This document shows positions 2,558 through 49,998 of a stretch of 64,000 nucleotides of DNA, piece after piece. Source of the stretch: Dictyostelium discoideum (Eukaryota); the NCBI GenBank assembly GCA_000004695.1, contig CM000151.3:8064001-8128000 (forward strand). Direction: 5' to 3'. The notes below the pieces were generated by a model that saw only the letters and a list, made by a program, of their open reading frames with translations, did not search any database and was not told the DNA's origin. Each line of letters opens with the position of its first letter. The stretch's first letter is position 1. The position numbers and the translations under genes were made by a program.

Positions 2558-4733
<2,176 letters not shown>

Positions 4734-20185: not shown

Positions 20186-20435
20186 TTTAGTAATCACCAA
20201 TAATATTATTATAAAACTTAAAAAAATAAAGTTGGTTTTAATTCATAATATTCGTTGTTTTTTTTTTTTTTTTTTTTTTTTTACATTAATGAGTAGATCT
20301 ACGAATATTTTGTTTTGCGCTTGGGATGCAGTAATGAATCTTAGCTATTTGAATTTTAATTTCTTTTTTTTTAAAGTTATTACATTTCTAAATGGGATTC
20401 GATCCCTTGACCCAAAGTTTTATTTTTAAAAAAAG

Positions 20436-20506
20436 TGCCGCGACCTGGAATCGAACCAGGGTCAACAGAGCCACAATCTGATGTACTACCACTATACTAT
20501 CACGGC
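20436..20506 (-). tRNA. tRNA-His (anticodon GTG)
   Basis: The minus-strand sequence is GCCGTGATAGTATAGTGGTAGTACATCAGATTGTGGCTCTGTTGACCCTGGTTCGATTCCAGGTCGCGGCA (71 nt). It has a cloverleaf and a canonical GGTTCGATTCC T-arm. Its acceptor, D-arm and anticodon loop (TTGTGGC) are near-identical to eukaryotic tRNA-His-GTG. Confidence 0.85.

Positions 20507-22803: not shown

Positions 22804-22809
<6 letters not shown>
21622..22809 (+). CDS. Retrotransposon ORF1 (nucleic-acid-binding, Lys/Glu/Asn-rich)
   Basis: A 395-aa ORF lying immediately upstream of ORF2 and separated from it by a poly(A) stretch. Its composition is typical of LINE ORF1. Confidence 0.55.
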
Positions 22810-22853
<44 letters not shown>

Positions 22854-22856
<3 letters not shown>

Positions 22857-25802: not shown

Positions 25803-26281
25803 AGAAGAAGAGTCGTCTATGCACATCTTCTTCGAATGCAAATCAATAAAACAGGATATCGACTCAATCTATCAAAAGGTCTGTAAAGACTCTAACAACA
25901 CTTACCACGGTCCATGGAGCGAAAAAGTTCTCGGAAAACTACTCACACCATTCTCATCAAATCTGATAGGAGCCATTATGGAATCGATATGGTACAGAAG
26001 AAATCAAATAAAATTCAACGATAACACTACAATAATAACAGAGAACCAAATAATTCATAAAATCAAAAAAGCGAGAGATGCCGAATGGGATAGAACAAGA
26101 AAGATAGTAGAAAAGCAACTACGTCAAGAACTAAAATGCACTGATAACCGAGAGTCAATCAATCGGACCGCATCAATAAAAAGAAGACTCGAAAAATTCA
26201 GCCACAACTGGAACTCGAAACTCATGACCATAAACATCCCGGAACACTTCATACCATACTGCTCATATAACACCAACTACT

Positions 26282-26286
<5 letters not shown>
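25780..26286 (+). CDS. Retrotransposon 3' ORF. This is a possible out-of-frame continuation of the ORF2 C-terminal Cys-rich region.
   Basis: A 168-aa ORF that overlaps the ORF2 stop. It contains CKEEESSMHIFFECKS and ends in the duplicated 3' module. It may indicate a frameshifted, non-autonomous copy. Confidence 0.3.
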
Positions 26287-26924: not shown

Positions 26925-29032
26925 TTATTTTCTGTTTAATAATTTAATCTGTCTTTTGAAACGGGCCTCAACAAATCTTTTTTTATAAATTACGTATAAT
27001 AGTGCTATAATCAAAGCACATGCAACCACTGGTACGGTAATGGCAACTGGTAAAACCCAAAATTTTTGATCATTTCCACGGCACCCGTCAACGAATTCAG
27101 GACTAACCAATACAGAGAAGTCAGGATCTAATAAACATTTCTTTGTACAATGAGGTAAATTCATACCAACTGTAATTGAATCATTTGATTTTGATATTAA
27201 TACAGTTTTCATAAATGTTGATATTCCATCACTTTCGATTCTGTCTATAAATCTACCATTTAAAACTTTTGCATCTTTTTTAATTGTTATATAATTTAAT
27301 GAATTATCTTGATTTGGTGTATTATTGATTTCAATTTGATCATCGTTACAATCATTTTCATTATTTGTTTGAATTTCATTTACACTTGATTTCATTTGTA
27401 ATTGTAAAGTATTTAAATTACTTGAATATTGATAGTTTTCAATTGATACTGTCATTTTAACTGATCCACTTGTTAATTTAAAATTAATACCTGCAAATGA
27501 TACATCTCTATCTTTATTAACTTCTTCAATTGTATATGTGATATTACATTTATCATTTTGAATTGATTGAATGAATGTGTAAACTGTTTTACTAATATTT
27601 GAAATTATTGACCATTTATTTAATAATAGATACTCATTGATTTGATTACCATTGAAATCTATCTCTATTAATTTTGTAATTAAAATTTGATAATTTGTTT
27701 GTTGATTTGTAATATTTGTATTACCAGTATTACCATCTATTGTTGTATTAGATCCTGGTAATCCACCATTATTACCACCACTACTGCCACCACCACTTGG
27801 ATTTGAATATAAACTACAATCATAACCGCTCCATCTTCCAATACAATTACAATATCCAGTTGTTGTATTACAAATACCATTTGATGCCGATGTACAATGA
27901 TTTGGACATTGTTTATCATTTGAATAATATTGATAAATATCTTTTGATGTTACATTGATTGAATTTTGAATTACGCTAACTGATTTTAAACCTGTACCTG
28001 GTGGTGCTTTACAATTAATTTCACTTTCAGATATATTATAAATTGGTATACATTGTATATTACCAATGAAAACTTGTGGATTAGTATGATTATTACCAAA
28101 CCAACCATAAATTGAAGCATTACCACCATTGATGTCACTTGGTGAAACTGCTGATATTGTATGTAATGGAATTGAGCAATCATTACCAGTCCATCCAAAA
28201 GGAGTGATTTGACATGAGCAAATACCAGTTTGATTATTACATTGACCAACACTATTACAATCATTTAAACATTCTTTTAATGGTAATCCACATGCATCAC
28301 CTTGATGATTTGAATCACATTGACATTTACCAGTTAGAGTTGTACAAATACCATTACCATTACAGTCAAGTGGATTACAATCGATATATGGCAAAGAACA
28401 ATCATCACCTTGATGTGTTGAATCACATTGACATTTACCAATATCAGATAAACAATAACCATTACCATTACAATCATTATAAGCAGAACAGTTTAAAATT
28501 TTATTTATTAAACCTGGATTTAAAGTGAATTGAGTTGTTAAATTACCAATTGTAATATATGATAAAATGTTTTTAAAGGAATCTATACTATTGAAGACTG
28601 TACATGATATTTGATTAAATGATGTACTTGTTACAAAGCAATTATCGCTACCAATTGTAATATTTACAATTGATTTATTATATGTAAAGAATGAACCATC
28701 GAAAACCAAATTCAAAGCACTTGATTGCCAATCAACCTTTTCTAAAAGAGGATTAATATTTCTGGTTGATAATTTAAAAAAATAGTTTGGATCCACTGGG
28801 CTATATTTCATGGAAATAACATCTGGAAGTTTTGAATAAGACACAACCCTTATTAATTTATTAACAATTAAAAATTGACTAGCATAATAACTACCAAAAT
28901 CATCAACAACCAAGTTTGTTGGAATCCAAATACCACCTAAATTTTCACCAAATATAAAGAATTCATACTCTAAATAAGTTGTAAAATTCTTTACATTACC
29001 TGGCATAAAGTTTGGAATAATTATTGCTAAAA

Positions 29033-30791: not shown

Positions 30792-31762
30792 ATTATAAAA
30801 ATAATGATAATAATTATTTTTTTTTTTTGATGACTTTTTATATTGTTGGGAAAATCTTTAAAATTTGATATTTTTTTTTTTTTATTAAGATATTTTGGGG
30901 GATTACATATAATTTGAAAAAAAAAAAAAAAATATTAAAAAAAATAATATTAAAAAAAAAAAAAAAATATCTAAAGAACCTTTGATTTGAAATTAGATTT
31001 CGATTGGTGGTTTATTTCTTTATTTTTTTTGTTTTTTTTTTTTGAAGAATTTAAATGATATTTTTCATTTATTTTGAATTACTATAAAAAATATATTACC
31101 AGTTCAATTTTGTTTTTTTTTTTTTTTTTTTTTTTTGTTTTTAGAAAACTCAAAGACTTTTTTTTAAAGAATGATGATATAATTGAAGAAGCTCCTACAA
31201 TCACCACCACCTGAGAGAAATAAGGTCTAATGAAACATTTCTTTTGCATTTTAACAGATCCTCAGATAACTTATTAATTTGAAATCAATACCAGGAAATA
31301 TTGTAAGTTTAGATAATATCATTACTTTTTGTTATTTTTATCAATTGATAAAAATTCTTCCATTGAAAATAAAAATAAAATAAAATGTAAAAAAAAAGTG
31401 AAAATAATAAAAATAAAAACAAACACAAAAGCACGAAAAACGGAGGGTTTTGTGGATTTATTTTTATTTTTATTTTTATTTTAATTTTTATTTTTTTATT
31501 TTTATTTTATTTTGTTTTTTTTTTTTGTTTAATTATTTTTTTTTTTTGGATGTTTTTACAAAATTTTCTTTGTCTTTTTTTTTTTTTTTTTTTACAAACA
31601 ATCATTTTTTACTAAAACTTTAAAAAGCCATGACCTATAAGTCTTAAAAAGAATTTTTGTTTTTCTGAAAGTTTGAAAATTATCGTTTGCAGTAACATGA
31701 TGTTTTTTTTTAATTTAATTTAATTTAATTTTTTTTTTTTTTTTTTTTTTTTTTTTGGATTT

Positions 31763-31805
<43 letters not shown>

Positions 31806-31939
31806 AATTTTTGAAAAAAAAACAAACAAACAACTTTATTTATTTATTTATAATGTAAGTATCTTTTTTTAAAATCCGTCAATAAAAATAAATCTGAATT
31901 GAAAAAATAAAACAAATTAAAGAAAACAGAAATAAGATT

Positions 31940-31974
<35 letters not shown>

Positions 31975-32118
31975 GAATTAAAATTATTTGAAAATTTTGC
32001 TTACACATAATGGTGTTGGGTGCCAGATAGGGCACTTTTTAAAATAATTTAATTTTAAAAAAAAAAATAAAATAAAAAAATAAAAAAAATATATTATATT
32101 CGACTTCAAAAAATTTCA

Positions 32119-32161
<43 letters not shown>

Positions 32162-32396
32162 CATTATATTTCATAACCCTCATAAATAATATTTATTAAT
32201 ACAAATCTTCTTTTTTTATTTTAATTAATTATTTAATAACTTGTAAAATATTATATATATTTTTTTATTTTAAATTTATTTATTTTTTAATTTTTTATTA
32301 ATTTTAATAACCCACTCCACAAAAACCCGTTTAATAATTTCACAAAAAAAAAAAAAAAAAAAAAAAAAATATTTTATTGTGTTTGCATATAAACAA

Positions 32397-32427
<31 letters not shown>

Positions 32428-32570
32428 AAAAAAAAACAATAATATTTAAGATATTTATAAAAAAAAAAAGAAAAAAAAAAACCTTCCGAATTTTATATAA
32501 AGAAAAAAAAAACAATAATATTTAGATATTTATAAAAAAAAAAAAAAAAAAAACAAATAAATTAAAGAAA

Positions 32571-33513
32571 ATGTATAATCCACCACCACCATCCGGTTCA
32601 CAAGGTAACAATAATTATTATAGACAACCATCATCCACACCCGGTGTTTCTAACCCAAATCCACAAGCTAATCAATTTTTACCACCTCCACCTTCTAATA
32701 CACAAGCTCCAAGACCAGGATTTCCACCAAGTGCTCCACCACCAAGTGCCCCAGCAGGACAATACAGTATGCCACCACCACCACAACAACAGCAACAAGC
32801 AGGACAATATGGTATGCCACCACCACCATCAGGTTCAGGTATAGGTACAGGTGTTTCATTAGTAAAAGATCAACAAATTTCATTAAGTAAAGAGGATCCA
32901 TATCTTAGAAAATTAACAGTAGGTTTAGGTTGGGATGTAAATACAACACCAAGTGCACCATTTGATTTGGATGCAGTAGTTTTTATGTTGGGTGCAAATG
33001 GTATGGTTCGTCAACCAGCAGATTTTATTTTTTATAATAACAAACAATCTAGGGATGGTTCAATCTTTCATCATGGTGATAATTTAACAGGTGCAGGTGA
33101 TGGAGACGATGAAGTCGTATCTGTAAACTTACAAGCAGTTTCACCTGACGTTACTCGTTTGGTTTTCGCCGTCACCATTCATCAACCTGAATTAAGAAGA
33201 CAAAATTTCGGTATGGTTCCAAGAGCTTTCATTCGTATTGCAAACCAAGAAACAACTAGAAATATATGTAGATACGATCTAACCAATGAAGGTGGTACAA
33301 ATACTGCTATGATTGTTGGTGAAGTTTATCGTGATCCTCAAAATCCTCAAAATTGGTCATTTATTGCTGTTGGTAAATCTTTCCCTGGTGGTTTACAATT
33401 CCTTTGTCAAATCTTTGGTGTAAGTTATATTTATTAATTAATTTTTTTTTTTTTTTTTAATTTTATTAACAATTATTTTTTTTTTATTTATTATATAGGT
33501 AAATGCGTCATAA
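32571..33513 (+). CDS. TerD-domain protein with a Pro/Gln-rich N-terminus (resembles the Dictyostelium CABP1 cAMP-binding protein family). Exons: 32571..33419 and 33499..33513.
   Basis: The N-terminus carries PPPP, QQQQ and GQY(S/G)MPPPP repeats. The C-terminus is a TerD fold ([19 protein letters not shown]...[14 protein letters not shown]...[29 protein letters not shown]...RLVFAVTIH). A GTAAGT donor at 33420 and a tatatag acceptor add a 4-aa terminal exon. Confidence 0.7.
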
Positions 33514-34023
33514 ATTTTTTAATTTTAATTTTTTCTTAGGCATTTTTGGCAAATTAGTTGGTTGGAATTTTCACTCATAATTTTGTATACAGATATTTTT
33601 TTTTATTCCACATAACACAATAAACAATCACTTTTTTTGTTCTAAAATTACACTTTTATTTTTTATTTTTTTATTTTTGTTTAACCCAATTTTTAACCTA
33701 CTCGTTAACGTGGGAAGATTTTTTTTTTCCCAAGTTTCCAATTGTTTTTAAAATTTTATTTTTTTATTTTTTATTTTTTTATTGATGCCCTTTCAACTCT
33801 AAACGATTTTTTTTAAAAATTCAAACAAATTTTAAATTGCCGAATCGTTTTTTCAAGATCTGATTAGGCAAGTTTTTTCCACCAAAAGAATAAAAAAAAT
33901 TTTTAAAAAGTTGGGCTAAAGATATTTTAAAATATTTTTTTTTTTTTTTTTTGCAGTTTTAATTTTTTATTATAATTTTATTTTATTATATATATTTTTC
34001 AAAGAGTATACCACTAAATTAAA

Positions 34024-34948
34024 ATGTTAAAATTTATTCAAAAAATTTCAAAATCAAGGTGTAATTTTTTATATATATTTTTAATTTTAATTTTAATTAA
34101 TTTTTCAAATCCAAAAGTAAATTCTCAAACATTAAATAAAAATGAATATGATTGTTTAAAGAGTTTGTTAACCAATTTGGGATCAATCAATAAAGTTAAA
34201 ATTAATGCAACATCTTTAGAATATTTATTTTGTGGTACAATGGAATTTTCATCACCAAATGTTCAAATATTTTGTAATGAAGGTTCAATTTCAAAACTAA
34301 ATGTAGGACAAGCTAATTTCACATATACAGTAACTGATGATTTTTCATGTTTTAAAAATATGACTGAATTATCAGTGGATGATATTGTTTATGATAAAGA
34401 TAAATTTTATAATTAATATCCTCCAAATGCAAAAGAATTTTCATTTGATGGCACTGATTTAGTTTATGGAACTATTTCACCAATTATTAAAAAATATAAC
34501 TCAATGTCAATACAAAAAATACCAACAATAATTAAATTTTCTTGGTATTTAAATACAACTAAAATGTAGGTATAAAATAAATTATTATTATAATTAAAAT
34601 TATTTTTTTTTTAATCATTTTTATTTTCCTATTTAAAAAAAAAAAAAAAGTCATATAGAACTCTTTAGTACCTTTTAAAGGATATTTTTTAGTTTCATTT
34701 GATAATGATCTTGATGGTTCAAAAATTTGGGATTGTTCTATTTTAATTCATTCTCTAAATGTTCCATCATTAAATTTTATTACAGGCGATATTTCTTTAA
34801 ATCTAATGTTAGATTACGATCAATCATCATGGGGAAATATTACAACTTTTGGAGGAATGAGATATATGTCTCTAAGAGCTTCAGATTTATCATCTTTTCC
34901 ATTAGAGTTTTCAAATTTAAGATCTGAAGTTTTAAAATCTATGTATGT

Positions 34949-34992
<44 letters not shown>

Positions 34993-37621
34993 GACAAAAA
35001 AAAAAAAAAAAAAAGATATATTGAAATACCATTTTTAGCAGTATCTTCAAAGATTGATTTATCATTAATAGGAAAATCATTAGAATCATTATCTTTTTTT
35101 CATCCAAATAATTTTACATTTGGCGGCTTATTTCCAATAATTTTACCATCCAATGAAGCATTTAAAAAATTGGAATTTGTTAATGGAAATATTGAAACAT
35201 TTGATTTTTCATTATTTACAAATGTTGAAACATTATCATTAGAAAGTAATTTAATGTCAAATGATTTTCCTTCAAGTTTCAATAGAACAATTCATAGAAA
35301 ATTAAAACACCTTGATATAAGTAATAATAAAATGACAGGTACAATTGATGATTCATTTTGTCAATTAGAAATCATTGTTACAAATAATTCAATGACAGGT
35401 TTAATTCCAACTTGTTTTACATGTTTCTTTGGATTACCAGAAATAAATTTAGAAAGATATTTTATTGGAAATAATTTTATAAATTTAAATACACCTTCTT
35501 CACCATGTAAGTGTTTTATTTTTTATTTTTTATTTTTTATTTTTTATTTTTTATTTTTTTTTTTTAATTTGTTTTTTTTTACTAATTCCATTTATGATAT
35601 ATATATATATTTGTATTTAAGCAATTATCATTCCAAATATAGTTTTTAATAATACTTCAATTATTGAGGGTATTCCAATAGTTTTTTATGAATATTTAAT
35701 ATTTGGTGAAAATTTAGGTGGTAGTTGGGTTCCATTTACAGCTGTCTCTGATTCTGTAGGAACACCAATGATTTTTTCAATGATTGAGTCAAATAGTTTA
35801 TTTAAAGTATTTTGCTATGGAGAGCCCAAGTTTCCTTTAAACTTATCATACAGTAAGTCTAACCCAAACTATACATTTACTTTATCATTGGGAATACCAC
35901 CAATATTAAATTTAGTAGATTGGCAATCAAGTACAACTGATTTAGTAATAGATGGTTCATTCTTTACATATAATGGTTCTATAATTAATATTACAATTGG
36001 TAATGAAAATTGTTTCGTTACAAATACAAATTTTTATCAAATTAAATGTAAACTTTCAAATGTTATAGATCAATCATTAGAGGATATTATATCATATATT
36101 ACAATTGGTAATTTTAAAACTCAATTCACTTTAAATCCAGGTGTAATAAATACAATTTTAAATTGTACTGAAAATTATAATGATTGTAATGGTAATGGTA
36201 ATTGTTTATCTGATATTGGTAAATGTAAATGTGATTCAACTCATCAAGGTGATGATTGCTCAATCCCATATATAGAATGTTTAAATGATTGTAATAATGT
36301 TGGTCAATGTAATAATCAAACTGGTATTTGTTCATGCCCAATCACTCCTTACGAATGGATTGGTATTGATTGTTCAATTCCATTACATACAATATCAGCA
36401 GTTTCACCAAGTGATACCAATGGTGGTAGTGCTTCGATTTATGGTTGGTTTAGTAATAATCATACTGATCCACAAGTTTTCATTGGTAATAAACAATGTA
36501 TACCAATTTTTAGTATATCTGAAAGTGAAATTATTTGTAAAGCACCACCAGGTACAGGTTTAAAATCAGTAAGTGTAATTCAAAATTCAATCAATGTAAC
36601 ATCAAAAGATATTTATCAATATTATTCAAATGATAAACAATGTCCAAATCATTGTACATCGACATCAAATGGTATTTGTAATACAACAACTGGATATTGT
36701 AATTGTATCGGGAGATGGAGCGGTTATGATTGTAGTTTATATTCAAATCCAAGTGGTGGCGATAATAATAGTGGAATACCAGGATCAAATACAACAATAG
36801 ATGGTAATACTGGTAATACAAACATTACAAATCAACAAACAAATTATCAAATTTTAATTACAAAATTAATAGAGATAGATTTCAATGGTAATCAAATCAA
36901 TGAATATCTTTTATTAAATAAATGGTCAATAATTTCAAATATTAGTAAAACAGTTTACACATTCATTCAATCAATTCAAAATGATATATGTAATATTACA
37001 TATACAATTGAAGAAGTTAATAAAGATAGAGATGTATCATTTGCAGGTATTAATTTTAAATTAACAAGTGGATCAGTTAAAATGACAGTATCAATTGAAA
37101 ATTATCAATATTCAAGTAATTTAAATACATTACAATTACAAATGAAATCAAGTGTAAATGAAATTCAAACAAATAATGAAATGAATGATTGTAACGATGA
37201 TCAAATTGAAATTGATAGTACACCGAACCAAGATAATTCATTAAATTATATAACAATTAAAAAAGATGCAAAAGTTTTAAATGGTAGATTTATAGACAGA
37301 ATCGAAAGTGATGGTATATCAACATTTATGCAAACTGTGTTAGTATCAAAATCAAATGATTCAATTACAGTTGGTATGAATTTACCTCATTGTACAAAGA
37401 AATGTTTATTAGATCCTGACTTCTCTGTATTGATTAGTCCTGAATTCATTGATGAATGTGATGATAATAATCGTGAGTCATGGTTTTTACCAGTTGTGAT
37501 CGCTGTTCCAGTTGGAGGTCTAGCTGCAATTATTGCTATTGTTTTCATAATTTACAAAAAAAGATTTGTTGAAGCCCCATTAAAAAGAAAATTAAAATCA
37601 CTTAGAAATTATAAAAATTAA
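34024..37621 (+). CDS. tgr-like paralog C, a near-duplicate of paralog E, with apparent disruptions. Exons are approximately 34024..34565, about 34651..34942, about 35018..35506 and 35622..37621.
   Basis: Its exon and intron sequence is about 95% identical to paralog E. Exon 1 carries an in-frame TAA at 34414-34416 (aat taa tat cct) where paralog E reads aat tca tat cct, which truncates the reading frame to 130 aa. An extra TAG at 34656 sits in the region used as the exon-2 start in paralog E. Exons 3-4 (LRR, EGF, TIG, TM) are intact. Confidence 0.5.
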
Positions 37622-37950
37622 AATTGAAAATAAAAAAAGAAATAAAAAATAAAAATATCTAACCCAGGCATCTATAAAGTATAAAAAAAAAAAAAATAGT
37701 GGAAATAAAAAAAAAAAAAAAAAAAAGGTTTATATTAGAACAGATCCGAGCTGTGTTTAAAAAAAAAAAACTTTTTAATATTCAAAAGGTTTTAAAAAAA
37801 AAAAAATGGAAAAAATCAAAAAAAAAAAGAAAAAACAATGATGATTTTTTGTTTAAAAAAAAAAAACGTCTTTCCCAAACATAGATTTGTTTTCCAATAA
37901 ATTTCAAAACTAAAAAACAAAAACCCGAAAAGACACTCTTATTTTTTTTA

Positions 37951-38010
37951 TTTAATATCTTTTAAATTTTTATTCATTACGTAATGAATAAAAATTTAAA
38001 AGATATTAAA
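37951..38010. repeat. Perfect 60-bp palindrome (30-bp arms with no spacer, centred on cattac|gtaatg)
   Basis: The arms read tttaatatcttttaaatttttattcattac | gtaatgaataaaaatttaaaagatattaaa and are exact reverse complements. Weaker inverted flanks (aaacgtctttc ... gaaaagacgttt) extend the palindrome-like region to about 37860-38060. Confidence 0.9.
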
Positions 38011-38197
38011 TAAAAAAAAATACGTAATTCAAATAAAATTTTGAAAAGACGTTTTTTTTTTTTTATTTTTGATCAATTAAATATATCATAATAATAATAA
38101 TAATAATAATATTAAATAATATTAAAAATAAATAAATAAAAATATAAAATAAAAAAAAAATAATTTTAAAAATAGTTAATTATTAAAAAAAAAGTAA

Positions 38198-39156
38198 ATG
38201 AAAAAATCTAAATCATTGATTTTTTATTTTTTTTTTATTTTTTTTTTATCTATTCAAGTAAATTCAAATGAATTAAATAAAAAAGAATATGATTGTTTGG
38301 TAAACTTTTTAACAAATTTGGGAAAAATATCAAATGTTGGTAAAAATGAAAAAACATTTGAATATGAATTTTGTAATCCCTTTTTTGTTTCATTACCAAC
38401 CGAAATAAAATGTAATCAAGGTTCAATCACTTATTTAGATACTGTTCAGTCAAATATTAGCTATATAATTAAAGATGAATTATTATGTTTTGATAATATT
38501 AATTATTTTTTACTTTCAAATATTAATTATGATAGTGCCATATTTTTCAATTCTTTCCCAAAGAGTTTAAATAAAGTTATTTTGACTGGAACGAATTTAC
38601 AATTTTCCAAAGTTACAAAAGATCTTCAAACGTTATCGATATCAATTATTTCTCAAAAAATTCCAACTACATTAAAATTTTCTTGGTTTTATAAAACTAC
38701 TCAATTGTATGTATTTATTAAATTTTTAAAAAGTTAAAAATTTGTATTAATTAAATATTAAATTGTTTTTTTGAAAAAAAAAAAAAATAAAAATAAAAAA
38801 AAAAAATAAAAAAAAAAAAAAAAATAAAAAAAAAAAAAAAAAAAAAAAATTAGTATTTTATCATCTACAAGTTTTTCAAGCAATAAAACACATTCAATAG
38901 CATTTGAAAATGATCTTAAAGATTCTGAAATTTGGGAAACTAATTACTTTAATATTATTTCATTAAATTTGCCAAAATTTAATAATGTTAAAGGATTTGT
39001 TCAAATCGAGTTAATAGAAGGATATAATCAAACTTCGTGGTCTAATATTAAAGAGATTGGGAATGTAACAAATATCTATATTAGAACAAATGATTTAACA
39101 GAATTTCCAAATGATCATCTATCAAATATCAGGTCTGATTCGATAGAGAAAATGTA

Positions 39157-39195
<39 letters not shown>

Positions 39196-41854
39196 ATATT
39201 AAATTAAACATTTAATTTTTTTTATTACTTAGAAATTTTGAAGTTCCGTTTAAATCTGTTAAAAAAATGTGCGATTTATCATCAATAGGTAAATCAATTC
39301 AAATTATTTCCTTTTCAAAATGTGGTAGAGATTTTTCATTTAATGGTTTAATGCCAATAATTTTACCAAATAACCAAGATTTTCAATATTTTTTTTTAAT
39401 TGGTGGCTATATTAAGAATTTTGATATTTTGCAATATAAAAGTGCTGAATATATTACATTAAGCAATAATTTGATGTCTGGTACCTTACCTTCAATTAAT
39501 AGTTTTAAATTCGGTAAATTAAAATATATTGATATTGGTTTTAATTTAATAACAGGTGAATTGGATGACTCATATTGTGAATTTGATATTATTGTAAACA
39601 ATAACTCAATGACTGGATTAATTCCAACCTGTTTTACATGTTTCTTTGGACTAACTGAATTAAATTTAAAATCGAGATTCATTGGTAATAATTTTACAAA
39701 TTTAGATCAACCTTCATCTCCATGTAAGTTGAAGTAGTATTTTTTAACTTTTTTTTAAAATTAAAAAGATTGAATAAATTTGAAAAAAAATTACTGACTA
39801 TATTTTATTTATAATAATAAAGCAATTATTTCACCAAATTTGATTTTCTCAAATATTGAAATATTTCAAGGTCAACCTCATTATAAATATTATATCTTTG
39901 GTGAAAATTTAGGTGGGGCTTGGATTGATGAATCAAATGCAGAGATTATTGGCTTTGATGTGAAATTTAGGGTAATAAAACCAAATAAACTAATATCACT
40001 TTACTCTCTTTCATCATTTTCTAGTATTGTAACATTTTCATATAGTAGAATAAATTCAAATTATAGATTTACTTTATCAGCAGATTTAATAACACCAAAA
40101 TTAATAAAGGTTGAATGGGTTAGTAATTCTCAAGATTTAGCTTTTGAAGGTTTTTATTTTTCCTATAATAAATCAATAATTAACATTTCAATTGGTGATG
40201 TTAATTGTCAAGTTACAAGTAGTACTTTTTATAATATTAACTGTACTCTTTTGGCACCAATAGATCTTACTTTAATTGATATTGTATCATTTATAACAGT
40301 TGGTAATTTAACAACTCAGTTCACTTTAAATCCAGGTGTTACAAATAATTTACTATATTGTATTAATGGATGTGGTGGAAATGGAATTTGTTTTTCCGAT
40401 ATTGGTAAATGTAAATGTGATTCGACTCATCAAGGTGATGATTGTTCATTACCATATATTGAATGTCCAATTAATTGTACCAATTTAAGTGTATGTAATA
40501 ATGTAACTGGTGAATGTTCATGTCCATCATTCTTAATTTGGAGCGGTATTGATTGCTCATTTCCATTACATACAATATCTGCAGTTTCACCAAGTGATAT
40601 CAATGGTGGTAGTGCTTCAATTTATGGTTGGTTTGGTAATATTCATAATGACCCACAAGTTTTCATTGGTACTAAACAATGTATACCAATTTATAATATA
40701 TCTGAAAGTGAAATTATTTGTAAAGCACCACCAGGTACAGGTTTAAAATCAGTAAGTGTAATTCAAAATTCAATCAATGTGACATCAAAAGATATTTATC
40801 AATATTATTCAAATGATAAACAATGTCCAAATCATTGTACATCGACATCAAATGGCATTTGTAATACAACAACTGGATATTGTAATTGTATTGGAAGATG
40901 GAGCGGTTATGATTGTAGTTTATATTCTAATCCAAGTGGCGGTGGCGATAATAGTGGTGGATTACCAGGATCTAATACAACAATAGATGGTAATACTGGT
41001 AATACAAATATTACACTGGTAATACAAATATTACAAATCAACACACAAATTATCAAATTTTAATTACAAAATTAATAGAGATAGATTTCAATGGTAATCA
41101 AATCAATGAATATCTATTATTAAATAAATGGTCAATAATTTCGAATATTAGTAAAACAGTTTACACATTCAATCAATCAATTCAAAATGATAAATGTAAT
41201 ATCACATATACAATTGAAGAAGTTAATAAAGATAGAGATGTATCATTTGCGGGTATTAATTTTAAATTAACAAGTGGATCAGTTAAAATGACAGTATCAA
41301 TTGAAAATTATCAATATTCAAGTAATTTAAATACATTACAATTACAAATGAAATCAAGTGTAAATGAAATTCAAATAAATCATGAAATGAATGATTGTAA
41401 CAATGATCAAATTGAAATCAATAATACACCAAATCAATATAATTCATTAAATTATATAACAATTAAAAAAGATGCAAAAGTTTTAAATGGTAGATTTATA
41501 GACAGAATCGAAAGTGATGGTATATCAACATTTATGCAAACTGTATTAGTATCAAAATCAAATGACTCAATTACAGTTGGTATGAATTTACCTCATTGTA
41601 CAAAGAAATGTTTATTAGATCCTGATTTCTCTGTATTGGTTAGTCCTGAATTCGTTGATGAATGTGATAATGATCGAAAATCCTTTTTTTTACCAGTTGT
41701 TATAGTGGTTCCTATTGTTTTTTTAATTTTAATAATTATTTTTGTAGTTATTACTATAAAAAAAAGATATGTTGAGATGTATTTATTTAAATCAAAAATA
41801 AAACAATTGGCAAACTTAAAAAATATTAAAATAAATAAAAAAACAGAATTATAA
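38198..41854 (+). pseudogene. tgr-like paralog D, frameshifted by a 20-bp tandem duplication. Exons are 38198..38706, 38854..39153, 39233..39723 and 39823..41854.
   Basis: The 20-mer ctggtaatacaaatattaca occurs twice in tandem (40996-41015 and 41016-41035) within the otherwise conserved GNTGNTNITNQQTNYQ region. The 39840..41063 ORF stops at ...NITLVIQILQINTQIIKF*. The conserved C-terminal domains then continue in another frame (41288..41854). The N-terminal half is divergent (MKKSKSLIFYFFF...). Its TM and tail match paralog E. Confidence 0.55.
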
Positions 41855-42400
41855 TAAATAAAAATTTGATTAACAGGATTCATTTTAAAAAATTTTTAAA
41901 TATCTTCCAAACAAATCCAAATATCCATTTTCTTTTTTTTAAAAACAAATCAACACTGAAAATTCTTAAGTTTGTACGGCCGTACACAAAGTAATTTTAT
42001 GCACACCTATTTTACCTTTATTTTCCCTTTATTTTTACATTTTTTTTTTTTTGGTGAATTTTTTAGAAAAAAAAAAAAAAGAAATAAAAAAAACGAAAAA
42101 AAAAAATCAAACACCGCAATTACCTTCCGGCAAAACATTAAAATAAAAAAATAAAAATAAGATATTTTTTTTTAATATTTTCATTTTTGTGTCTGTTCGG
42201 TGTTTCAACCAAAATTTTAATCTATTAATCGTTTTGTTTAAAAAAAAAAAAAATGTTAAAATGTTGGGAAAAAGTTTTTTTTTTTTTTTTTTTAATTTTA
42301 ATTTATTTTATTTTATAATAATTTTATTTATTTTATTTATTTTATTTAATTTTAATTAATTTTATTTTATTTATTTTTCAAAATATATCTCCAAATTAAA

Positions 42401-43337
42401 ATGTTGAATTTTATTCAAAAAATTTCAAAATCTGGGTGTAATTTTTTTTATTTATTTTTAATTTTAATTTTAATTAATTTTTCAAATCCAAAAGTAAATT
42501 CTCAAACATTAAATAAAAATGAATATGATTGTTTAAAGAGTTTGTTAACAAATTTGGGATCAATCAATAAAGTTAAAATTAATACAACATCTTTAGAATA
42601 TTTATTTTGTGGTACATTGGAATTTCTATCACCAAATGTTAAAATATTTTGTAATGAAGGTTCAATTTCAAAATTAAGTGTAGGACAAGCTAATTTCACA
42701 TATACAGTAACTGATGATTTTTCATGTTTTAAAAATATGACTAATTTATCTGTTGATAATATTGTTTATGATAAAGATAAATTTTATAATTCATATCCTC
42801 CAAATGCAAAAGAATTTTCATTTGATGGCACTGATTTAGTTTATGGAACTATTTCACCAATTATTAAAATTTTTGACTCAATGTCAATACAAAATATACC
42901 AACAATAATTAAATTTTCTTGGTATTTAAATACAACTAAAATGTAAGTTTAAAATTAATTATTATTATTATTATTTTAATGAATACTAATAAAATTTTTT
43001 TTTTTATCATTTTTATTTTTCCTATTTAAAAAAAAAAAAGTGTAATAGCCTCTTTCGTACCTTTTAAAGGATATTTTTTAGTTTCATTTGATAATGATCT
43101 TGATGGTTCAAAAATTTGGGATTGTTCTATTTTAATTCATTCTCTAAATGTTCCATCATTAAATTTTATTACAGGTGAAATTACTTTAAATCTAATGTTA
43201 GATTACGATCAATCATCATGGGGAAATATTACAACTTTTGGAGGAATGAGATATATGTCTCTAATATCTTCAAATTTATCATATTTTCCATTAGAATTTT
43301 CAAATTTAAGATCTGAAGTTTTAAAATCTATGTATGT

Positions 43338-43380
<43 letters not shown>

Positions 43381-45993
43381 CAAAAAAAAAAAAAAAAGAT
43401 TTATTGAAATACCATTTTTAGCAGTATCTTCAAAAATTGATTTATCATTAATAGGAAAATCATTAGAATCATTATATTTTTTTCATCCAAATAATTTTAC
43501 ATTTGGTGGTTTATTTCCAATAATTTTACCATCAAATGAAGCATTTAAAAAATTGGAATTTGTTTATGGAAATATTGAAATATTAGATCTTTCATTATTT
43601 ACAAATGTTGAAACATTATCATTAAAATGTAATTTAATGTCCAATGGTTTTCCTTCAAGTTTCAATAGAACAATTCATAGAAAATTAAAACACATTGATA
43701 TAAGCAATAATAGTATTACAGGTACAATTGATGATTCATTTTGTCAATTGGAAATCATTGTTACAAATAATTCAATGACAGGTTTAATTCCAACTTGTTT
43801 TACATGTTTCTTTGGATTACCAGAAATAAATTTAGAAAGATATTTTATTGGAAATAATTTTATAAATTTAAATACACCTTCTTCACCATGTAAGTGTTTT
43901 ATTTTTTATTTTTTATTTTTTATTTTTTTATTTTAATTTGTTTTTTTTTACTAATTCCATTTATGATATATATATATATTTGTATTTAAGCAATTATCAT
44001 TCCAAATATAGTTTTTAATAATACTTCAATTATTGAGGGTTCAATAGTTTTTTATGAATATTTAATATTTGGTGAAAATTTAGGTGGTAGTTGGGTTCCA
44101 TTTACAGCTGTCTCTGATTCTGTAGGAACACCAATGATTATTTCAATGATTGAGCCAAATAGTTTATTTAAATTATTTTGCAATGGAGAGCCCAAGTTTC
44201 CTTTAAACTTATCATACAGTAAGTCTAACCCAAACTATACATTTACTTTATCATTGGGAATACCACCAATATTAAATTTAGTAGATTGGCAATCAAGTAC
44301 AACTGATTTAGTAATAGATGGTTCATTCTTTACATATAATAGTTCTATAATTAATATTACAATTGGTAATGAAAATTGTTTGGTTACAAATACAAATTTT
44401 TATCAAATTAAATGTACACTTTCAAATGTTATAGATCAATCATTAGAGGATATTATATCATATATTACAAATGGTAATTTAATAACTCAATTCACTTTAA
44501 ATCCAGGTGTAATAAATACAATTTTAAATTGTACTGAAAATTATAATGATTGTAATGGTAATGGATATTGTTTATCTGATATTGGTAAATGTAAATGTGA
44601 TCCAACCCATCAAGGTGGTGATTGCTCTTTGCCATATATAGAATGTTTAAATGATTGTAATAATGTTGGTCAATGTAATAATCAAACTGGTATTTGCTCG
44701 TGTCCAATCTCTCCTTATGAATGGAGTGGTATTGATTGTTCAATTCCATTACATACAATATCTGCAGTTTCACCAAGTGATACCAATGGTGGTAGCGCTT
44801 CAATTTATGGTTGGTTTAGTAATAATCATACTTATCTACAAGTTTTCATTGGTAATAAACAATGTATACCAATTTATAATATATCTAAAAGTGAAATTAT
44901 TTGTAAAGCACCACCAAGTACAGGTTTAAAATCAGTTAGTGTAATTCAAAATTCAATCAATGTAACATCAAAAGATATTTATCAATATTATTCAAATGAT
45001 AAACAATGTCCAAATCATTGTACATCGACATCAAATGGCATTTGTAATACAACAACTGGATATTGTAATTGTATTGGAAGATGGAGCGGTTATGATTGTA
45101 GTTTATATTCAAATCCAAGTGGTGGTGGCGATAATAGTGGTGGATTACCAGGATCAAATACAACAATAGATGGTAATACTGGTAATACAAATATTACAAA
45201 TCAACAAACAAATTATCAAATTTTAATTACAAAATTAATAGAGATAGATTTCAATGGTAATCAAATCAATGAATATCTATTATTAAATAAATGGTCAATA
45301 ATTTCAAATATTAGTAAAACAGTTTACACATTCATTCAATCAATTCAAAATGATAAATGTAATATCACATATACAATTGATGAAATTAATAAAGATAGAG
45401 ACACAACTTTCGCAGGTATTAATTTTAAATTAACAAGTGGATCAGTTAAAATGACAGTATCAATTGAAAACTATCAATATTCAAGTAATTTAAATACATT
45501 ACAATTACAAATGAAATCAAGTGTAAATGAAATTCAAACAAATAATGAAAATGATTGTAACAATGATCAAATTGAAATCAATAATACACCAAATCAAGAT
45601 AATTCATTAAATTATATGACAATTAAAAAAGATGCAAAAGTTTTAAATGGTAGATTTATAGACAGAATCGAAAGTGATGGTATATCAACATTTATGCAAA
45701 CTGTGTTAGTATCAAAATCAAATGATTCAATTACAGTTGGTATGAATTTACCTCATTGTACAAAGAAATGTTTATTAGATCCTGATTTCTCTGTATTGGT
45801 TAGTCCTGAATTCGTTGATGAATGTGGTGGTGATAATGATCGAAAATCCTGGTTTTTACCAGTTGTTATAGTGGTTCCTATTGTTTTTTTAACCTTAATA
45901 ATTATTTTTGTAGTTATTACTATAAAAAAAAGATTTGTTGAGATGTATTTATTTAAATCAAAAATAAAACAATTGGCAAACTTAAATAAATAA
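42401..45993 (+). CDS. Type I membrane protein with LRR, EGF, IPT/TIG and TM regions, paralog E (tgr-like), apparently intact. Exons are 42401..42942, 43041..43331, 43399..43889 and 43991..45993.
   Basis: Signal peptide MLNFIQKISKSGCNFFYLFLILILINFSNPKVNS. All splice junctions are phase-consistent (GTAAGT, GTATGT and GTAAGT donors; poly-A introns ending in ag). The 619-aa exon 4 holds EGF x3, TIG, the conserved unknown domain and a TM anchor (FLPVVIVVPIVFLTLIIIFVVITIKKRF). Confidence 0.7.
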
Positions 45994-46956
45994 AAACAAA
46001 AAACAGAATTACAAATAAAAGTAAAAAAAAAAAAAAAAAAAATTTTTAATTAAATTGTTTATTTTATTGACATAAAAGGTTAAATCACATAAATATTTAT
46101 TCTCTTTTTATTTGTGTTGATTTTGTAAAGCAATCTTCAAAAAATGCATTGAAAATAGGTAAAAAATGATGTTTTCGAAATGATGTTGTGTCCAATTGGG
46201 TTGGGTGATAATTTAAATTTGCATACAAAAAAAAAAAAAAAAAAAAAAAAGAAAAAAAAAATTGCAACACCTGATTTGTAATTTACCAACAAAATAAGTA
46301 GTCAAAAACCTGGAAAATAGAAAAGAAGGAGGAAATAAAATAAAAAAATAAATAAAAAAAAAAAATAAAAAAATAAAAAAATAAAAAGGCATGAAACAGT
46401 GCAGTGGTTTGAAAATAATTTCTTTTTTTTTAATTTTATTTTTTCAAAACAGTAAAATTTTTATTTTTTTTTTTATTTTTTTTTAATAAAACGCTTAACA
46501 AAAAAAAAAAAAAAATCAAGCATTGTTTTTTTTTTATCCCCACCAACACATCATCAAAAAAACACATAAAACTGATATAAAAAATTTTAAAAAAAAAAAA
46601 ATTATTTTTAATATTTACACCGCACAACTATTTATAGTTCACATTAAACAAAAATAAAAAAATAAATAAAAATAAAAATAAAAAAATAAAAATAAAAAAA
46701 ATAAAAAACAAAAAAAAATAAAAAAATAAATTAAAAAAAAAAAAAAAGAAAAAAAAAACACACAGATAACCCGGGGTCTTTTATTTTTTCTTTTTTTCTG
46801 TTGTCAATCATAATTTGTAAAAAATAAAAAATAAAAATAAACACACACACACAACGAATTTTATTAATCATATAAATTATTTATAACAAAAAAAAAGCTT
46901 TTTTTTTTTTTTTTTTTTTATCAAACAATAATAAATTAATAAAACAATAATAAAAA

Positions 46957-47113
46957 ATGGATCCATTGTCAATATCAATGGAGAGTAAAGTTGTATTATT
47001 AGGTAGTTCAGATGTTGGGAAAACTGCTCTATCACTTCGTTATGTTGATGGAATATTTCCTAAACGTTTAACTTCAACAATAGGAGCATCCTTTTTAACG
47101 CGGACAATGTATG

Positions 47114-47172
<59 letters not shown>

Positions 47173-48037
47173 ATATTCTCAACACTGTTTTGAAAATAAA
47201 AATAAAAAATAAAAAATAAAAAATAAAAAATCTCATTACTTACAATTGTCACACACAATAATTTTTAAAAAAAAAATAATAATAATCATAATAATGTGAA
47301 AATACTTTTAGAAATATAGAAGGAAATAAAATTAAATATCTAATATGGGATAGTGCTGGACAAGATAGATTTCGAAGTTTAGCTACACTTTATTATCGTG
47401 GTGCATGTGTTGCAATTTTAGTATTTGATATAACTCAACAAAAAACATTTGATATAGTTAAAGGATGGGTTGAAGAATTAAAAGCAAATATTCAAGAAGA
47501 AATTAGTAAGTATATATAATGTATATATATTAATGTATATATATATATTAATTATTTATACTTTATAATTTTTTTTTTTTTTTTTTTTCAAAAATTAATT
47601 AATTAATAATAGTAATGGTATTATGTGGAAATAAAATTGATTTAGAACAAAATAGACAAGTTAAAAGTGAGACAGCAAAATTATATGCAGATGAAATTAA
47701 TGCAATGTATGTTGAAACCTCTGCAAAAGAGAATGAAGGTGTTGAAGGAATGTTTTTAGAGATTGGAAAGAAATTAATATTAAATAAACATAATGAATAC
47801 TTTAAACAATTTCAACAACAACAAAAACTTCATAAACAATTCCAACAACAAAATCAAAGCTTATATCAATATCATATACAACAACAAAAACATCAACAAC
47901 AACAACAACAACAACAACAACAAATTTTTAAAAATCAACAATTTTATAATAATGGTCATCTTCAAGGCAGTATAAATGGTCATAATAATCAAAATTCAAC
48001 AAATTATAGTGATAATAGTGATCAATGTTGTGGTTAA
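46957..48037 (+). CDS. Rab-family small GTPase with a polyQ C-terminal extension and a CCG terminus. Exons: 46957..47108, 47312..47505 and 47613..48037.
   Basis: G1 motif GSSDVGKT; switch region TIGASFLT; G3 WDSAGQDRF; G4 GNKIDL; G5 ETSAKE; prenylation-type C-terminus ...DQCCG. The introns have GTATGT and GTAAGT donors and ttttag and aatag acceptors. Confidence 0.75.
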
Positions 48038-48402
48038 CTTTTAGATATATTAAAAAACAAAAAAAACAAAAAAACTAAAACAAAAAACAAAAAACAAAAA
48101 CAAAAACAAAAACAAAAAACAAAAAGGGTGATATTAAAATAAACATGTATAAAAAAAGAAAAAACTTGTAAAAAAAAAGAAATAATATTATATTTTAATT
48201 TATTATTTATATGGAAATGCGTATTAAAACTACTAATTTAGATTTAATTTTAATTTCAAACACTTTTACAAATACGGAAGGAAATAAAATATTTAAGATT
48301 TGGAAAAGAAAATTTCCAAGTTTTCAAAAACTTTCTTTTTTTTTTTTTTAAAAAATTTTTTCTTTATTTTTTTTTATTTTTTTTTTATTATTATAATTTA
48401 AT

Positions 48403-48426
<24 letters not shown>

Positions 48427-48434
<8 letters not shown>

Positions 48435-49998
48435 AAAAATCATGACTATTAATAACAGATGAATAATGATTTTCATTACCTTGAAGTGAGATATTATGAT
48501 AAGCGAATTCACCATGTTCGACGAGATCGAGACCTAATTCTTCTTCAGATTCATCGATTTTAACACCGATAGTGGCATCGATAATCTTTAAGAGGACCCA
48601 AGTCCAAGCGGCAGCCCAAACAGCGACAGAAACGACACCGAGTAATTGAGTACCAATTAATTTTGGATTACCATAGAAAGCACCATTTGCACCATTTGGA
48701 TTAACAGAGAGTTCAGCACAGAAACCAATTGCCAATGAACCAATAATACCAGTTAAACCATGTACAGAGCTAACGTCTAAAGCATCATCGATGTGAAGTT
48801 TATGTTTTAATAATACAACGGAATAGTAAGAAGCTAAACCTAAACAAATACCCAACCCAATTGAATATTGACTATTGATATAACCAGATGCTGGTGTGAT
48901 ACCTGCTAAACCTGCAATAACACCATTGATAACCGATACAGTATTTGGTTTTCCTTTGGCGGCAGAAAGGATGATCCAAACAATAGCTGAAAAACTACCA
49001 CCAATTTGTGTGCTTGCTACTGCTGATGTTGCAATATTACCTGCTGCTAATGCACTACCTGCATTAAAACCAAACCAACCCATCCATAATAATGCTGCTC
49101 CAATTGTTGCTAATGGTAAATTTGATGGTGGGAATTCACCACCATATTTTTCAAAATCTTTTCTTCTACCAACATCTAAAATAATTAATAATAATAAATA
49201 ATATATTAATATTTATTTATTTTATTTATTTATTTATTTATTTATTATAAAATAATAATAACTTACATAATGCAATAACTAAAGCACTAACACCAGCACT
49301 TGTATGAATAACAATACCACCAGCAAAATCTAAAACACCAAAATATTTATGTAACCAACCACCACCCCAAATCCAATGAGCAACTGGATAGAAAACAATA
49401 ATTTCCCAAGCAACGGTGAGTGCGATGAATGCTTTGAATTTAACTCTTTCTGCGAATGCACCAGTCATCAATAATGGTGTAATATTTGCAAACATCATCA
49501 TAAAGAATGCATAAGCTGCTGCTGGAATATTTGGTGCATTTGGTGAACAATCGTCATATGAAACATTAATTAAAAATGCATGATCTAAATTACCAATAAT
49601 ACCTTTCTATAAATTTTAAAATAAAATAAAATATAAAAAGTTAATAAAATTAGATAAAATAATATAAAAACAATTATATATATATAAATACATACTTGAT
49701 CTGGGCCAAAAGTTAATGAATAACCAAATGCTTGCCACATGACAGTTAAAACTACAATACCAGACATAATTTGTGTGATAATTGAAAGTGTATTTTTACT
49801 TCTTAAGAGACCTGCTTCAAAGAATGCGAGTGCAGGCATCATACCTAATACTAAAATAGTTGAAAGTAAAACCCATGTTGTATTACCTGGATCTGGTGCT
49901 ACTTGATTTGCACAATCAAGATATTTTTGAACAACTGATGATGATGAACCGTTTGTTATTTCGGCTGCAACACCTTTTATTATTTCTCCTGCTACCAT
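48427..49998 (-). CDS. Ammonium transporter (Amt/MEP/Rh family). Exons: 49998..49696, 49606..49267 and 49175..48427.
   Basis: Amt signature blocks are present: WVLLSTILVLGMMPALAFFEAG, DFAGGIVIHTSAGVSALV, LWMGWFGFNAGSALAAG and VHGLTGIIGSLAIGF. The splice sites are phase-consistent (GTATGT with atag, GTAAGT with tttag). Confidence 0.85.

Follow-up and report, generated by a model that had tools for sequence, protein, structure and literature searches.

A perfect 20-bp tandem duplication in exon 4 of DDB_G0277555, a ComC-family gene of Dictyostelium discoideum, breaks its reading frame in the laboratory strain AX4 and has most probably turned the gene into a young, strain-polymorphic pseudogene whose membrane-anchored function is lost. 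The gene is paralog D of five clustered genes for ComC-family type I membrane proteins (A–E) in the window, a 64,000-nucleotide stretch that can be assigned to AX4 chromosome 2 because paralogs A, B, D and E correspond at 100% to four AX4 proteins (DDB_G0277431, DDB_G0277525, DDB_G0277555 and DDB_G0277557, respectively). Taken as a whole, the account in which a real germline duplication in the laboratory-strain lineage produced this pseudogene appears to us probable, and we place good confidence in it.

The 20-mer CTGGTAATACAAATATTACA stands twice, head to tail and without a mismatch, just as a sequence-only reading of the region had described (Table 1). Tandem Repeats Finder reports it with period 20, 2.0 copies, 100% match and a score of 82 (span 40995–41035), and the 20-mer is absent from all 100 dinucleotide-preserving shuffles. 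Exactly one 20-mer is present in each of paralogs A, B, C and E, and in a five-way alignment the additional 20 bp are an insertion private to D. That reading also held that the frame of D is broken, which is borne out since 20 is not a multiple of 3. The shift falls after residue 831, about 15–16 residues into the ComC supersandwich domain (ComC_SSD), and the upstream frame then soon closes: from where the second copy begins there are 15 aberrant codons (LVIQILQINTQIIKF*), not the 18 first given. The downstream domains do continue in another frame, with the conserved protein running on in the +2 frame to 41854: translated, 41018–41854 matches Pfam ComC_SSD positions 11–222 (E=1e-101), the native domain being split between 16 residues in the upstream frame and the remainder in the +2 frame. 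The two frames overlap at 41001–41063. Among the paralogs, tblastn finds the last exon divided between frames in D only, and the 20-bp insertion is the sole frame-breaking difference between D and its intact orthologs. The predicted product would be an 846-aa secreted ectodomain fragment with signal peptide, LRR, beta-sandwich, EGF, TIG and EGF modules, and almost the whole supersandwich domain would be missing from it, as would the transmembrane (TM) helix and the cytoplasmic tail.

Table 1. Features of paralog D and corresponding sites in the other paralogs (positions in the window)
Feature	Position	Strand	Remarks
Exon 1 of D	38198..38706	+	ATG, putative signal peptide, start of LRR domain; P0029 maps exactly
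Exon 2 of D	38854..39153	+	flanking GT..AG introns conserved with orthologs
Exon 3 of D	39233..39723	+	C-terminal part of LRR_ComC
Exon 4 of D, up to duplication	39823..41015	+	beta-sandwich, EGF, TIG, EGF, first 16 ComC_SSD residues (SSD start 40968)
First copy of 20-bp unit	40996..41015	+	upstream frame encodes ancestral ...T-GNT-NIT
Second, inserted copy of 20-bp unit	41016..41035	+	frame shift +2; private to D versus A, B, C, E and versus L001, L003, L004 orthologs
62-nt "intron" of AX4 model	41019..41080	+	bridges frameshift, cuts out conserved NQHTNYQILITKLIE
Ancestral rest of exon 4, +2 frame, open	41036..41854	+	ComC_SSD remainder (to 41638), putative TM helix (41684-41758), cytoplasmic tail, stop 41852-41854
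Premature TAA, upstream frame	41061..41063	+	after 15 aberrant residues (LVIQILQINTQIIKF)
Second D-only "intron" of AX4 model, 68 nt	41779..41846	+	replaces conserved C-terminus; dubious
Lost ancestral D stop	41828..41830	+	AAA here, TAA in wild-isolate orthologs; +8 codons in ancestral frame
Single 20-mer, paralog A	16617-16636	-	
Single 20-mer, paralog B	27708-27727	-	
Single 20-mer, paralog C	36810-36829	+	1 mismatch
Single 20-mer, paralog E (DDB_G0277557)	45179-45198	+	represents ancestral state
~1-kb homogenised block, D	40570..41605	+	
~1-kb homogenised block, A	16050-17062	-	
~1-kb homogenised block, B	27141-28162	-	
~1-kb homogenised block, C	36387-37399	+	
~1-kb homogenised block, E	44753-45765	+	

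Removal of one copy of the 20-mer yields a gene with three conserved GT-AG introns whose 1103-aa product is colinear and has every module of the family (signal peptide, LRR, beta-sandwich, EGF, TIG, ComC supersandwich domain and TM). ComC_SSD (PF22933) is found at residues 816–1032 of this repaired protein (E=6.6e-106), LRR_ComC at residues 94–396 (E=4.4e-22), the second beta-sandwich (Beta-sand_ComC_2nd) at residues 533–604 (E=1.1e-9) and TIG at E=2.5e-7, while EGF_2 scores 21.8 bits, slightly under its 22.1-bit cut-off. An N-terminal LRR_ComC and second beta-sandwich followed by EGF/TIG modules place the repaired protein in the ComC family. Judged by eye, the hydrophobic N-terminus MKKSKSLIFYFFFIFFLSIQVNS is a putative signal peptide, and the hydrophobic stretch FFLPVVIVVPIVFLILIIIFVVITI a putative TM helix that is out of frame in AX4. 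The family's namesake comC, found only in group 4 dictyostelids, encodes an EGF protein with a signal and a TM segment, and aggregation is aberrant in the comC mutant (PMC4931340, PMC2873529); D, in contrast, is an uncharacterised paralog within a five-gene cluster, and AX4 has its supersandwich domain, TM helix and tail in another frame. The only paper found that names the gene merely lists it near a methylated cytosine (bioRxiv 10.1101/166033), and a literature search on comC together with lagC returned nothing. With the upstream ORF of D as query, a homolog search gave only four distant or partial matches, and a search with the reconstructed sister-species ortholog reached AX4 and wild-isolate proteins. 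Exact-product look-ups with the window ORFs 41288–41854 and 44134–45993 found no identical product on record; for eukaryotic gene models, it is the spliced product that is stored.

Comparison of the region across strains, which had been proposed as a check, finds the duplication only in the window and in one near-identical assembly (L005), and a single copy elsewhere. Intact D orthologs are encoded at L003 (1098 aa), L006 (1098 aa) and L001 (1094 aa), which represent two wild isolates of D. discoideum and a sister species; the orthologs at L001, L003, L004 and L006 carry a single 20-mer, and the L006 protein (P0031) reads through intact. Comparison of these sequences marks the duplication as the derived state, because each of the other four paralogs and every ortholog examined across five other genomes has one copy. 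A gene that is colinear but for one disabling lesion, with the lesion absent from orthologs and from other strains, is what a young pseudogene would present.

Substitution patterns also suggest that the lesion is young. Pairwise omega between D and its ortholog is 0.25, and on the D lineage it is ∼0.23 upstream of the shift (23 synonymous and 21 non-synonymous changes) and ∼0.34 downstream of it (5 synonymous and 7 non-synonymous), a downstream relaxation of constraint that is not significant (Fisher p=0.21–0.75; binomial test against neutrality p=0.06). The lesion appears recent: the downstream frame is still fully open, and lineage dN/dS is still well below 1. Downstream of the shift D has also lost its ancestral stop (TAA>AAA) and carries a private 6-bp deletion and a W>F replacement; these would fit incipient decay and are suggestive only.

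Inactivation of D, as claimed in the sequence-only reading, is likely. It might be argued that the 846-aa product is made and kept because the secreted ectodomain works on its own, perhaps by modulating ComC-family signalling in soluble form, in which case function would have changed and not been lost. The 831 codons upstream of the shift, the signal peptide and the three introns are intact, the low upstream omega on the D lineage would be in keeping with retention, and exon-junction-dependent decay should not apply to a premature stop in the last exon. However, upstream constraint cannot be informative for so young a lesion, and the D ortholog at L004 has been separately destroyed by a nonsense mutation and a frameshift, which, together with a truncated family copy at L001 and one with in-frame stops at L002, points to dispensability. 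A retained ectodomain is accordingly an unlikely outcome.

The reference annotation treats the locus differently. DDB_G0277555 is filed as protein-coding and not as a pseudogene (XP_642642.1 / Q54ZK0, 1113 aa), and two annotation pipelines have both modelled it as coding. A 62-nt intron exactly reproduces the AX4 model (P0029, 1113 aa), including its stretch ...NITL|IDFNGNQ..., and an independent AX2-type model (P0030) uses an 80-nt version, 40999–41078. Were either annotation right, the spliced transcript would encode an in-frame membrane protein whose supersandwich domain has lost 14–20 residues at its beginning. Both candidates have GT..AG boundaries and restore a frame that is still fully open to 41854, yet their features are atypical. 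They begin at a GTAATA donor, finish at a GAG or TAG acceptor and have an AT content of 80–82% (for the 62-nt candidate GTAATA, GAG and 82%), whereas the 12 bona fide introns shared by the family measure 67–198 nt, have GTA[AT]G-type donors (GTAAGT or GTATGT in 10 of the 12), end without exception in [AT]AG and in 10 of 12 cases reach 87% AT or more. The 62-nt candidate is shorter than every one of these, and use of the AG two bases upstream of its acceptor (41077–78) would remove 60 nt and leave the frame unrestored. All intact paralogs and orthologs translate the identical stretch of sequence, and in them a 62-nt splice would cause a frameshift, so the stretch is evidently no efficient splice substrate. 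The residues removed are invariant across genomes, and the choice of different "introns" by the two pipelines is typical of frame-fixing by gene predictors. With atypical features, a position unique to D and coding status in all homologs, 41019–41080 does not qualify as a bona fide spliceosomal intron. That the reference annotation is right is therefore distinctly improbable, and we regard rescue in vivo by a newly usable 62- or 80-nt intron, with its donor in the duplicated GGTAATAC motif, as a slim prospect. Such an intron would amount to a natural, strain-specific conversion of coding sequence to intron after a frameshifting microduplication, and in the resulting ComC paralog the supersandwich domain would have its first strand shortened.

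The arrangement does recall intron gain by tandem duplication of AGGT, in that a GT-motif copy has been doubled within an exon and the annotated intron starts in the duplicate. Unlike in that model, which we reject here, the unit CTGGTAATACAAATATTACA has GT and no AG, excision would not be exact, and the frame-restoring candidates would also remove 42–60 nt of ancestral coding sequence. The 62-nt intron is most likely an annotation device, a workaround of automated prediction. A second D-only intron in the same model lies where the orthologs and paralog E read straight on (...KKRFVEMYLFKSKIKQLANL...). The reference entry is built on these two D-only introns, which mask the frameshift and an altered C-terminus, and therefore the deposited 1113-aa sequence is probably not a real protein; the main value of the present analysis is this correction of the annotation.

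AT-rich Dictyostelium DNA is difficult to clone and assemble, and the duplication might for that reason be an artefact that entered the reference genome during sequencing, cloning or assembly, an alternative that the sequence-only reading had itself raised. It is contradicted by L005 (GCA_054883475.1), an independent Nanopore+Illumina de novo assembly that has the same duplication within an identical 86-bp sequence (L005 9931–10016). L005 is 99.69% identical to the window over 18 kb and was not copied from the reference, because there are 16 other differing sites, mostly homopolymer lengths and also SNPs. The methods of this assembly are given in PMC12745789, and from the strain list of that study the strain is probably AX2-214. 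In addition, an exact 20-bp tandem insertion is an untypical error for Nanopore or Illumina sequencing, and an artefact is very hard to credit. Agreement of AX2 and AX4 confirms the sequence and not its natural frequency, because both descend from NC4. Programmed ribosomal frameshifting (−1 or +2) past the shift, for which the overlap of the two frames would offer room, can be dismissed as next to impossible: a −1 site is rejected since no zero-frame X XXY YYZ slippery heptamer occurs in 40990–41066 (the sole AAATTTT lies in another register), the shift stems from an insertion that is derived, strain-specific and missing from the orthologs, and conserved residues would be replaced whichever shift were used.

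The sequence-only reading took D for a recent duplicate in perfectly conserved surroundings, and neither description holds. In the 5' part of the last exon, D has diverged by 36–39% from the other paralogs and by only 7.8% from the positional ortholog in the sister species, which makes D an old paralog, and conservation around the duplication is only nearly perfect (a D-private A>C at 41044 replaces Q with H). The 93–100% identity among paralogs near the site is attributable, from the divergence pattern, to gene conversion of a ∼1-kb 3' block in all five copies. Across six genomes, paralogs within a genome are 2.1–4.1% apart in this block compared with 4.5–5.4% for orthologs between genomes, and the flanking 5' part and tail follow orthology, as would be predicted for a conversion block. 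The ComC cluster in this respect resembles other cases of concerted evolution among tandem or inverted paralogs, with paralogs closer than orthologs in the ∼1-kb block. Gene conversion in the 3' block also blurs the assignment of substitutions to lineages.

A gene-disabling mutation of this ordinary kind is unsurprising in such a family. In AX4 the tgr family counts 38 genes alongside 26 pseudogenes, and close isolates differ by gains and losses of genes (PMC12745789); D similarly sits in a clustered TIG/EGF surface-protein family with frequent truncated or disabled copies (here at L001, L002 and L004), although it belongs to the ComC family and is filed as protein-coding. D would be a further young polymorphic pseudogene in a cell-surface family with fast turnover, and the locus is a clean, small example of birth-and-death and concerted evolution in a developmental cell-surface gene family. 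AX4/AX2-type laboratory strains are probably without a membrane-anchored form of this ComC paralog, and two wild isolates retain one, which is relevant to work on ComC-family function and to comparisons of laboratory with wild strains.

As to mechanism, we infer that the 20-bp duplication arose in the lineage of NC4-derived laboratory strains, possibly by a template slip or by microhomology-mediated repair within a region of degenerate 9-bp (GNT/NIT) repeats. Replication slippage, which had been put forward as the cause, is only one possible mechanism because contiguous microhomology at the duplication junction amounts to no more than 1 nt. In-register slippage on the 9-bp GNT repeat can be rejected as the sole mechanism, given that it predicts multiples of 9 bp and not 20. 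A multiple-of-9 pattern is seen elsewhere in the family, in the truncated copy at L001, which carries an extra in-frame GNT.

The duplication and frameshift in paralog D (DDB_G0277555), one of five clustered ComC-family genes in the window, are real. As the sequence-only reading had it, CTGGTAATACAAATATTACA lies head to tail in two copies without mismatch at 40996–41035, and Tandem Repeats Finder returns an array (40995–41035; period 20, 2.0 copies, 100 per cent match, score 82) that is one base longer because of a single A of microhomology. The motif occurs four other times in the window, each as a single copy within one of the four paralogous ORFs, and was found 0 times in 100 shuffles of the window, whose G+C is about 22 per cent overall and 16–37 per cent across 2-kb windows. 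A DNA alignment of the five paralogs places the 20-bp insertion in D alone, which is also the only one with a last exon split between frames. The frameshift was likewise confirmed: the upstream frame, open from 39840, passes from GNTGNTNIT into LVIQILQINTQIIKF and ends at TAA 41061–41063, after 15 aberrant codons rather than the 18 first counted, and the conserved NQHTNYQILITKLIEIDF... resumes in the +2 frame, which is open until 41854. Translated, 41018–41854 matches positions 11–222 of Pfam ComC_SSD (E = 1e-101), and removing one 20-mer yields a colinear protein of 1103 aa. ComC_SSD covers residues 816–1032 of this repaired protein. With the frame broken after residue 831, the native product, which begins with a signal-peptide-like N-terminus, would lack the putative TM helix, the tail and nearly all of the supersandwich domain. 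This is a recent disabling mutation restricted to one lineage and ordinary in kind (a microduplication); in NC4-derived lab strains DDB_G0277555 is most likely a polymorphic pseudogene, or at best codes for a truncated fragment that is secreted.

Coordinates of features in the window and of D orthologs (ortholog positions are those of each locus)
Feature	Position	Strand	Remarks
Cyclin-N-domain protein	2558–4420	+	neighbouring gene; long poly-Asn tracts
Xanthine/uracil permease family protein	13667–15208	-	neighbouring gene
Paralog A ORF	15828–17777	-	DDB_G0277431, 100% identity; one 20-mer copy
Homogenised block A	16050–17062	-	
Paralog B ORF	26925–29006	-	DDB_G0277525, 100% identity; one 20-mer copy
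Homogenised block B	27141–28162	-	
TerD-domain protein	32571–33437	+	flanks C-D-E end of cluster
Paralog C ORF	35768–37621	+	one 20-mer copy
Homogenised block C	36387–37399	+	
Paralog D exons 1–4	38198–38706, 38854–39153, 39233–39723, 39823–41854		DDB_G0277555, 100% identity
Homogenised block D	40570–41605	+	
D-only intron 1	41019–41080		62 nt; donor GTAATA, acceptor GAG; 82% AT
Putative TM helix of D	41684–41758		downstream of frame break
D-only intron 2	41779–41846		68 nt; donor GTATTT, acceptor CAG; 87% AT
Paralog E ORF	44134–45993	+	DDB_G0277557, 100% identity; one 20-mer copy
Homogenised block E	44753–45765	+	
D ortholog, L003	5833–9404		D. discoideum wild isolate, probably CR116C; intact, 1098 aa, one 20-mer
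D ortholog, L006	6001–9580		D. discoideum wild isolate, probably OT3A; intact, 1098 aa; protein model P0031 reads through
D ortholog, L001	16110–19667		D. cf. discoideum; intact, 1094 aa, one 20-mer
D ortholog, L004	10001–13546		second D. cf. discoideum genome; one 20-mer; independently disabled

The domains found in the ORFs (LRR_ComC, Beta-sand_ComC_2nd, EGF, TIG and ComC_SSD) identify the Dictyostelium ComC family. Four AX4 proteins match the window at 100 per cent identity through GT-AG exon chains, which places the window on chromosome 2 of D. discoideum AX4, and four exons and three homologous introns are common to all five paralogs. The AX4 protein of D (P0029, 1113 aa) crosses the site as ...GNTGNTNITL|IDFNGNQ..., and its exact sequence requires that, besides the three family introns, both D-only introns be spliced. 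The first is shorter than every family intron; most of the 12 shared family introns begin with a GTAAGT or GTATGT donor, and all 12 have an [AT]AG end and a length of 67–198 nt. In all the paralogs and orthologs compared, the stretch that the AX4 model excises is read as coding sequence and does not vary. Because the D-only introns are atypical and the excised stretch is coding elsewhere, they are read as frame-fixing by gene predictors that would mask the lesion; an independent fused model (P0030, from locus L005) skips 40999–41078 instead (...TIDGNT|EIDFNGNQ...). In the AX4 model the second D-only intron replaces the conserved C-terminus. Intron gain by tandem duplication is ruled out since the duplicated unit contains no AG, and programmed frameshifting has no slippery heptamer in its support. 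The practical use of the finding lies in a correction to the reference gene model of DDB_G0277555 and in flagging a lab-versus-wild strain difference at this gene.

An assembly error, in which the second copy would exist only in the reference, is contradicted by L005, which derives from a D. discoideum genome (GCA_054883475.1) of a project in which Nanopore and Illumina reads were assembled de novo (PMC12745789). We infer its strain to be AX2-214, the sole near-AX4 strain in that project's list (PMC12745789). L005 is 99.69 per cent identical to window 31002–48995 and differs at 16 sites, mainly homopolymer lengths and a few substitutions, and it contains the identical 86-bp duplicated stretch at 9931–10016. 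The duplication thus belongs to the NC4-derived laboratory lineage and is not an error in the reference. The 3150-aa P0030 merges paralogs C, D and E of L005 (3001–14945) into one gene model, an annotation artefact through which cluster-level protein counts would miscount the ComC family.

Comparison of strains, which the sequence-only reading had put forward, recovered positional orthologs of D with a single 20-mer in L001, L003 and L004. The L004 ortholog has a TAT>TAA nonsense mutation (DIYQ*Y), is frameshifted in the EGF region as well, and is annotated as two genes of 752 and 292 aa. L001 also holds a truncated ComC copy (10001–11393) that carries one additional in-frame GNT unit of 9 bp, and a copy in D. 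dimigraforme (L002, 10001–13192) has in-frame stops (NQQTNF*, SSN*) near the duplication region. Given these disabled copies, the family undergoes birth-and-death turnover, and D seems dispensable.

The view of D as recently duplicated did not hold. The 5' part of its last exon differs by 36–39 per cent from A, B, C and E and by 7.8 per cent from the L001 ortholog, and the TM and tail segment also follows orthology (4.6 per cent). The 5' halves of the ComC paralogs are 30–40 per cent diverged, and a block of ∼1 kb (TIG, EGF, ComC_SSD) is 93–100 per cent identical among all five, including A and B on the opposite strand. Within five discoideum-clade genomes, block copies differ by means of 2.1–4.1 per cent versus 4.5–5.4 per cent between genomes, and in D. 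dimigraforme by 8.1 versus about 12 per cent. This greater closeness of same-genome copies in six genomes is characteristic of concerted evolution through gene conversion, which operates even on copies in inverted orientation. D is thus an old paralog with the duplication located in its homogenised tract, and gene conversion could in principle erase or spread it.

The duplication itself appears young. When changes are polarised with L003 as the sister and L001 as the outgroup, the D lineage has 23 synonymous and 21 non-synonymous substitutions upstream of the duplication (omega about 0.23) and 5 and 7 downstream (omega about 0.34), a difference that is not significant; downstream neutrality is only marginally disfavoured (p = 0.06). 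In the orthologous 5' part, a pairwise comparison of D with its L001 counterpart gives a dN/dS of 0.25. Since 272 downstream codons are still open in so AT-rich a genome, the frameshift is young relative to roughly 4.5 per cent synonymous divergence on the D lineage. There are hints of incipient decay downstream: the ancestral stop is lost (AAA at 41828–41830 versus TAA in L003 and L006), extending the ancestral frame by eight codons; a 6-bp deletion is private to D; and at 41685–41686, inside a T run, AX4 has TT versus GG in L005 (TGG>TTT, W>F). This Trp is kept in four aligned homologs (paralogs C and E, and the L001 orthologs of C and D), and the AX4 bases are either a lab-lineage mutation in an already out-of-frame region or a base-call error in the reference.

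The site falls within a degenerate 9-bp periodic stretch (TGGTAATAC / TGGTAATAC / AAATATTAC) that varies in frame elsewhere, as in the extra GNT unit of the L001 copy, and the Gly/Asn linker nearby has 3- and 9-bp indels. A gain of 20 bp breaks the register of this periodicity, and contiguous microhomology at the junction is 1 nt only. A template slip or a microhomology-mediated repair event may plausibly have produced the duplication, with the sequence favouring neither.

Paralog E (42400–46000) is chimeric: its 5' part is C-like (2 per cent from C), its TM/tail is D-like (2.8 per cent from D and 3.2 per cent from D's ortholog in L001), and the sequence 3' of the gene aligns to the flank downstream of that ortholog, which suggests that a C-D unit was duplicated and then recombined within the homogenised tract. 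The window and wild isolates L003 and L006 have the C-D-E order in common; L001 lacks it. The position of TerD adjoining ComC genes is conserved in L001, L002, L005 and L006, and in L001, L003, L005 and L006 the last ComC copy is followed downstream by an annotated Arf-family gene. Between A and B, an ORF pair (21622–26286, +) of higher G+C (30–37 per cent) and strong A-skew lies about 1.1 kb from a tRNA-His gene (20435–20506, -); the larger ORF (22854–25802) has a reverse-transcriptase domain (RVT_1, E = 4e-37), and the element looks like a tRNA-gene-associated non-LTR retrotransposon.
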